From Eledone cirrhosa (lineage: Eukaryota): a DNA stretch of 64,000 bases. Below the pieces are notes generated by a model. The model ran no database searches. It saw nothing but the letters and a program-made list of their open reading frames with translations, and was not told where the DNA came from. Numbering within the stretch: the stretch's first letter is position 1; every line of letters starts with the position of its first letter. This document shows positions 9,497 through 9,754 of the stretch, one piece after another. Location: assembly GCA_964016885.1 (NCBI GenBank), contig CAXHJY010001394.1, positions 1 through 64,000 of the forward strand, written 5' to 3'. The position numbers and the translations under genes were made by a program.

Positions 9497-9754
9497 TAAA
9501 TGAAAGATATAGAAAACATTGTAGCAAGAAGCCAACAGTATTCCATAATATATAAGTGACTATAGAGTCAATATGGGGAATATAGTTAAGGTAAGATGTG
9601 GGAAAAATAATTGAAACTCAACTGAAAGAGAATCAAGAAATAGATTCCTCCACAGAATTTAGTGAAATCCAGGGAAGAATCAATAAAGCCTTAACTCATG
9701 ATAAAATAAAGTTTAAAATACTCACCGTTTGATTTGGAAAAACTTAAAATGCTC
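9497..9754 (-). mobile_element. Diverged short copy of the HHR element (post-cleavage portion only)
   Basis: Colinear with 7208-7462 (shares ATTCCTCCACAGAATTTAGT, AAATCCAGGGAA, TTAACTCATGATAAAATAAAGTTT) and ends at AAATGCTC. Flanked by TA-rich repeats. Confidence 0.75.

Follow-up and report, generated by a model that had tools for sequence, protein, structure and literature searches.

A retrozyme-like element with a predicted hammerhead ribozyme in Eledone cirrhosa, and a truncated copy ending close to the predicted cleavage site

General features of the locus

The region analysed, hereafter the window, is a stretch of 64,000 nucleotides of the Eledone cirrhosa genome (GenBank assembly GCA_964016885.1, contig CAXHJY010001394.1, positions 1 to 64,000), AT-rich and containing many microsatellites. 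Its minus strand carries two related copies of a non-coding element. Copy 1 (7208-7848, 641 nt), delimited from the sequence and from a joint found in public sequencing runs, consists of a 625-nt unit and a 16-nt terminal redundancy, and its 3' end lies in a (TA)n tract. The two terminal direct repeats, at 7208-7223 (3' copy) and 7833-7848 (5' copy, which forms the 5' junction of copy 1), are identical, and the locus holds 1.03 units only. The unit has a GC content of 0.334 and displays stops in all six frames. A predicted type I hammerhead ribozyme (7459-7540) lies within copy 1, which passes through it and is longer than one unit. Copy 2 (9497-9754), delimited by blastn and global alignment, is a 5'-truncated relative from which the ribozyme is absent.

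A 5'-truncated Penelope-like element (PLE), encoding the C-terminus of a reverse transcriptase (RT) and a GIY-YIG-like domain, is located nearby on the plus strand (3962-6892) and mirrored on the minus strand (1023-3948). The two arms are 98.9% alike and form a 2.9-kb palindrome with (TA)n at both ends, the left arm having an extra tail of about 75-100 nt. An ORF call and cluster matches define an open 435-aa frame with a cysteine-rich linker (3951-5258, plus strand), in which we take the motifs YRDD and VY..YVG to be those of PLE reverse transcriptase and endonuclease; the element is presumably Neptune/Nematis-like. No Pfam match was found for the ORF, and none was significant for its two homologues. 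The nearest Atlas clusters are cnidarian, molluscan and arthropod, with HTH_animal on 26-98% of their members and, in some of them, GIY-YIG or RVT_1 on 10-26%. A minimal hammerhead core (a bulged base, then a G-C pair) was recognised in the sequence of both arms, at 6774-6815 on the plus strand and 1139-1098 on the minus strand, about 60 nt from the right-hand 3' end; two ribozyme families thus lie 650 nt apart. The adjacent PLE is of the kind of enzyme that would mobilise the retrozyme; since a blastn comparison within the window revealed no DNA homology between the retrozyme and positions 900-6900, its presence means no more than that an enzyme of the appropriate type was active in this genome.

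The locus is prone to rearrangement. From 9710 to 64000 the window is a tandem array of units of about 11.4-14.5 kb, 97-99.8% alike, whose breakpoint falls inside copy 2 at a short microhomology. The units are terminated by a 1.58-kb subrepeat of about 48% GC with internal inverted repeats, present in 2-4 copies per unit. In the interval between the two copies (about 7850-9500), TA-interspersed minisatellites form an imperfect palindrome whose centre is near 8685, and related units occur at 240-590. Decayed fragments at about 12000-12780 and 17570-18200, judged by eye, may derive from an RTE-type LINE reverse transcriptase.

The predicted hammerhead ribozyme

The hammerhead proposed for positions 7459-7540 of the minus strand by an earlier reading of the sequence alone holds up as a prediction, on the basis of a descriptor scan, a constrained fold and shuffled controls. 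The scan, run on both strands, found exactly one type I hammerhead in the 64 kb, with the core CUGANGA, the GAAA, an NUH triplet and three stems in type I topology. Stem I pairs 7540-7535 with 7464-7459 (6 bp) and is followed by the core (7534-7528); stem II pairs 7527-7524 with 7490-7487 (4 bp) and is closed by a 33-nt loop; the GAAA lies at 7486-7483; and stem III pairs 7482-7476 with 7473-7467 (7 bp). The NUH triplet is AUA, with H17 at 7465, and cleavage is predicted between 7465 and 7464. These labels and the hammerhead residue numbering follow what we take to be the usual convention.

Dinucleotide shuffles of the element never reproduced a type I motif (0/3000). The fold constrained to the hammerhead reaches -17.6 kcal/mol and the free fold -18.9 kcal/mol, the free minimum being 1.3 kcal/mol better and mispairing the core. 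The 625-nt unit folded as a circle is more stable than the average of 60 shuffles (z of -2.85), with the hammerhead core mispaired in that minimum. Rfam gave no hit at the gathering threshold and no hammerhead among the 91 hits at E<=10, which were AT-repeat miRNA noise; the 33-nt loop II may explain the absence of a match. The base of stem II is an A-U pair where G10.1-C11.1 is usual, the latter being a preference of hammerheads and not a requirement. According to the accessible part of PMC7229834, that position is occupied by a U-U mismatch in an axolotl retrozyme. In the public runs described below, core positions are absent from the best 40 of 161 variable sites, a deficit that is not significant, as about 0.9 would be expected there.

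The truncated copy and its junctions

Blastn aligned 7200-7462 with 9489-9754 at 80.9% identity over 267 columns (E of 3e-66), and in a global alignment of 7208-7462 with 9497-9754, 208 of the 259 columns were identical, copy 2 being thus about 20% diverged from copy 1. The (TA)n tract is joined at the same point in both copies, at their 3' end. Homology stops at 9754, the equivalent of 7462, past which the extension score drops immediately; the downstream cleavage product would start at 7464, and the 5' end of copy 2 therefore lies 2 nt downstream of the predicted cut. The sequence-only reading had described copy 2 as a diverged relative of 7208-7462 with the same (TA)n-joined 3' end and a limit of homology within 2 nt of the cut, and the alignments agree with it on each of these points.

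The two letters found at the 5' junction could be target sequence or non-templated, which places the junction 0-2 nt from the cut. They precede an (AT)n tract, so that the junction is without a clean TA run, and the same 11-mer recurs at 10338 in the flanking satellite. This right flank starts with a TA-interspersed minisatellite (9755-9954), recognised from its sequence, whose unit is unlike that of the left flank; copy 2 thus lies between two different satellites, and the flanks of copy 1 are likewise unlike each other. The earlier reading had also considered that the rest of copy 2 might have been displaced by a later event. Searched with nhmmer, the upstream part (7463-7848) has no other occurrence in the 64-kb window, which argues against a displacement nearby.

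The junction of copy 2 is also found at 21324, 32737, 47183 and 61765. These were rejected as independent insertions because they are products of the later tandem duplication that begins at 9710: the duplicate at 21324-21379 (minus strand), which is 100% identical to 9710-9765 over 56 nt, junction included, marks the start of a unit of about 11.4 kb. The evidence for an insertion ending at the cut accordingly amounts to one event.

Abundance of the family and position of its 5' ends

Four of 16 listed public runs (X1, X2, X3 and X14) were mapped onto 7202-7858 at 80% likeness, retaining 22 contigs of X1, 9 of X2 and 1074 of X3, as well as 3400 of the 12.5 million RAD reads of X14. The retrozyme family is abundant and diverse. 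A joint leading from 7848 to 7224 and on to 7237, with 16 unit letters between, is present in one X2 contig and in six X14 reads from five starts, and the same continuation past 7848 appears as loose ends in four X3 contigs. These joints between 7848 and the unit start show that head-to-tail tandems are present as DNA; among the listed contigs and reads, none is long enough for two consecutive complete hammerheads. High copy number and head-to-tail joints together make the element look like a non-LTR retrozyme or a derivative of a Penelope pLTR. Animal non-LTR retrozymes are thought to derive from such Penelope-like pLTRs.

The sequence-only reading had further proposed that the element takes its 5' end from the cut. 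The data do not support the ribozyme cut as the 5' end of the family, considering the head-to-tail tandems, the passage of copy 1 through the ribozyme and the behaviour of the reads around the cut. Mean depths over 7400-7465 and 7466-7509 were respectively 105,753 and 103,169 in X3, 789 and 1135 in X14, and 292 and 387 in X1, that is without a depth step across the cut in any of the three, bearing in mind that summed contig depth differs from copy number and that unitigs collapse identical junctions. Between 7460 and 7466 there is no end pile among the best 6 of 8 and no loose end among the best 24 of 266; provided that their order reflects support, a pile at the cut would hold fewer than 137 reads, at a depth of about 930. 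Several contigs cross the cut uninterrupted. The absence of a depth step and of a listed pile, together with these contigs, argues against a predominance of cut-ended copies. The reads bear weakly on a minority class, as the library is of RAD type, unitigs are involved and the X14 reads are biased by the loss of informative ones at an AATT site situated 23 nt from the cut; a minority peak at the cut is therefore possible.

Ends are observed elsewhere. That of copy 1, at 7848, lies 1 nt past a TATA patch and precedes the cut by 384 nt; another is probable at about 7309, where one X1 contig appears, by eye and over 30 letters, to leave the element into a TA run. The six listed X14 end piles were not retained as biological ends: those at 7365, 7439, 7442 and 7587 coincide with an AATT in copy 1 and the remaining two probably with variant AATT sites, which are the cut sites of the library. 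A drop in depth over 7510-7553 was also discarded as a truncation boundary, since visual inspection suggests that homologous sequence, only diverged, accounts for most of the loose ends at 7544-7546.

Possible origins of the truncated copy

Copy 2 may well be a run-off product, made by a Penelope-type RT that reached the 5' end of an RNA monomer generated by self-cleavage, a reading to which we give a little less than even weight. Tandem arrays would be transcribed from the minus strand and their transcripts cut by the hammerhead into monomers running from cut to cut. A Penelope-like RT-endonuclease acting in trans would then nick TA-rich DNA and prime internally at the equivalent of position 7208; priming must be internal, as the 3' end of the element falls within the tandem unit, at 257 nt downstream of the cut. 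If the template were a linear monomer, the cDNA could not exceed 257 nt, would halt at the cut and, after a loss of about 2 nt at the 5' joining, would yield copy 2, whereas a circular template or an uncleaved multimer would let the RT read past the ribozyme and generate copies of more than a unit, such as copy 1 with its 625 + 16 nt. Run-off copies would then constitute a minority class and not the boundary of the family. The observed lengths fit, copy 2 measuring 258 nt with its net insertion included.

Several published observations bear on these steps. Linear and circular monomers have been shown for animal retrozymes, and the insertions of an anole PLE in vitro are initiated internally at AT-rich targets (PMC7229834, accessible part; PMC11167929). 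In the same anole system, insertion did not require cleavage and none of the RNA-seq reads ended at the cut, and in Xenopus 8 of 9 predicted retrozymes failed to cleave (PMC11167929; 10.64898/2026.07.22.740005, a preprint, accessible part). The R2 lineages whose cut falls at the element's 5' terminus have variable junctions, as described in the accessible part of PMC3774820, and a loss of 2 nt in copy 2 is thus not unexpected.

The weight of this coincidence depends on where insertions tend to end. With uniformly distributed ends, the 5 of 626 positions counted as matching the cut would be reached by chance in 0.8% of cases per copy and 1.6% for either of the two. One of the 12 TA patches of the unit contains the cut, and if ends favour such patches these values rise to about 8% and 16%. 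It is therefore quite possible, if somewhat short of probable, that copy 2 results from ordinary 5' truncation, with an uncleaved or circular RNA as the template of target-primed reverse transcription and the RT dropping off or the cDNA annealing to a TA-rich target at the patch that includes the AUA triplet. PLE insertions are commonly 5'-truncated (PMC8557442, accessible part), the other ends are scattered, and the depth is without a step. In a common variant that resembles copy 2 more closely, a 6-nt TA run begins where copy 2 stops (264 X14 reads), and the stem III hairpin just upstream could stall the RT. The end of copy 1 close to its TATA patch points the same way, with the qualification that 15% of unit positions are equally near and that the margin was set post hoc. 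Such a truncation is weakened by the junction of copy 2, which keeps no clean TA run, as well as by the probable X1 end near 7309, away from any TA patch, and without a TA bias the coincidence of end and cut falls to about 1%.

The duplication, the palindromes and the unlike flanks also leave room for a longer copy 2 whose ribozyme-bearing part was lost after insertion, when the TA satellites on either side underwent deletion or rearrangement. Its two flanks are different satellites, palindromes occupy about 7850-9500, the duplication of about 11.4 kb breaks 44 nt inside copy 2, and the divergence of about 20% from copy 1 may mean age. We nevertheless regard such a loss as unlikely: the missing part is absent from the whole window, the flanks of copy 1 are unlike each other too, which is maybe the insertion habit of the family, and only chance or the same TA patch would bring a deletion to within 2 nt of the cut. 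As for the proposal that the inserted cDNA was copied from a self-cleaved RNA, the match in length and the 0.8% chance under uniform ends speak for it, and the single event, the position of the cut in a TA patch and the rearranged locus speak against it. Copy 2 ending at the cut is a lead and not a rule.

Returning to the run-off reading, one can conceive of two classes of copies determined by the state of the template, from priming site to cut on a linear monomer (copy 2) and of more than a unit on a circle or multimer (copy 1), which would constitute a readable germline record of hammerhead activity in genomes. We put this forward as a speculative extension that is rather unlikely to apply as such.

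Comparison with known ribozyme-bearing elements

The kind of element described here is already known, and the principle of a cleavage footprint is established for R2 with its HDV-like ribozyme. As far as the accessible portions of Cervera and de la Pena 2020 (PMC7229834) and of Li, Clavereau and Pollet (10.64898/2026.07.22.740005) describe them, the non-LTR retrozymes of animals share with it a type I hammerhead in a non-coding, low-GC, head-to-tail unit, dispersed monomers and co-occurring PLEs. The 625-nt unit is larger than the 150-450 bp of the former paper and falls within the 51-972 bp of the latter. It differs from these retrozymes by its long loop II, and is known here from DNA alone. 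Neither paper describes copies ending at the cut in the portions covered.

The PLEs (PMC8557442, accessible part; Frangieh et al. 2024, PMC11167929) similarly have a fixed 3' end that is primed internally, with a hammerhead upstream of it, and share AT-rich or (TA)n targets, partial tandems and 5' truncation. Unlike them, the present unit is without an ORF and has a full stem III instead of a minimal hammerhead, and in the anole PLE the main template is uncleaved RNA (PMC11167929). The role of the hammerhead in PLEs and retrozymes is called unclear in the accessible part of PMC8557442, and the sole in vitro study found cleavage dispensable (PMC11167929). In R2 (Eickbush et al. 2013, PMC3774820, accessible part), cleavage likewise leaves its footprint at genomic 5' junctions, which vary when the cut is at the element end. 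R2 is in contrast autonomous and site-specific and bears another class of ribozyme; its cut sets the 5' end of full-length copies that keep the ribozyme, whereas the cut-ended copy found here is without ribozyme and dead on arrival.

Within the coverage of our literature search, beyond which lie most subscription papers as well as supplements that may hold endpoint plots, no genomic copy of a PLE or retrozyme was reported to end at the hammerhead cut. A class of such copies would show in vivo templating by self-cleaved RNA, which one copy cannot establish. If true, 5' ends peaking at the NUH site would provide in vivo evidence of cleaved RNA as a template for Penelope-type RT transposition, and cleavage sites could be mapped from DNA alone.

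Other features of the family

Exact-pattern scans returned no match in metagenome_contigs and none in viral_contigs; two matches in genome_contigs, 20-22 nt long, were dismissed as chance, as homology extends no further. Subfamilies appear to diverge sharply at 7544-7546, just upstream of stem I, the ribozyme and the 250 nt downstream of it remaining alignable, hinting at selection on a module from ribozyme to priming site. Finally, X2 contigs at 7683 and 7806 join the upstream part of the unit, on the 3' side of the element, to 255 and 47 nt of unrelated sequence, respectively; such joins may represent insertions or other subfamilies, or may connect the unit with a coding partner element.
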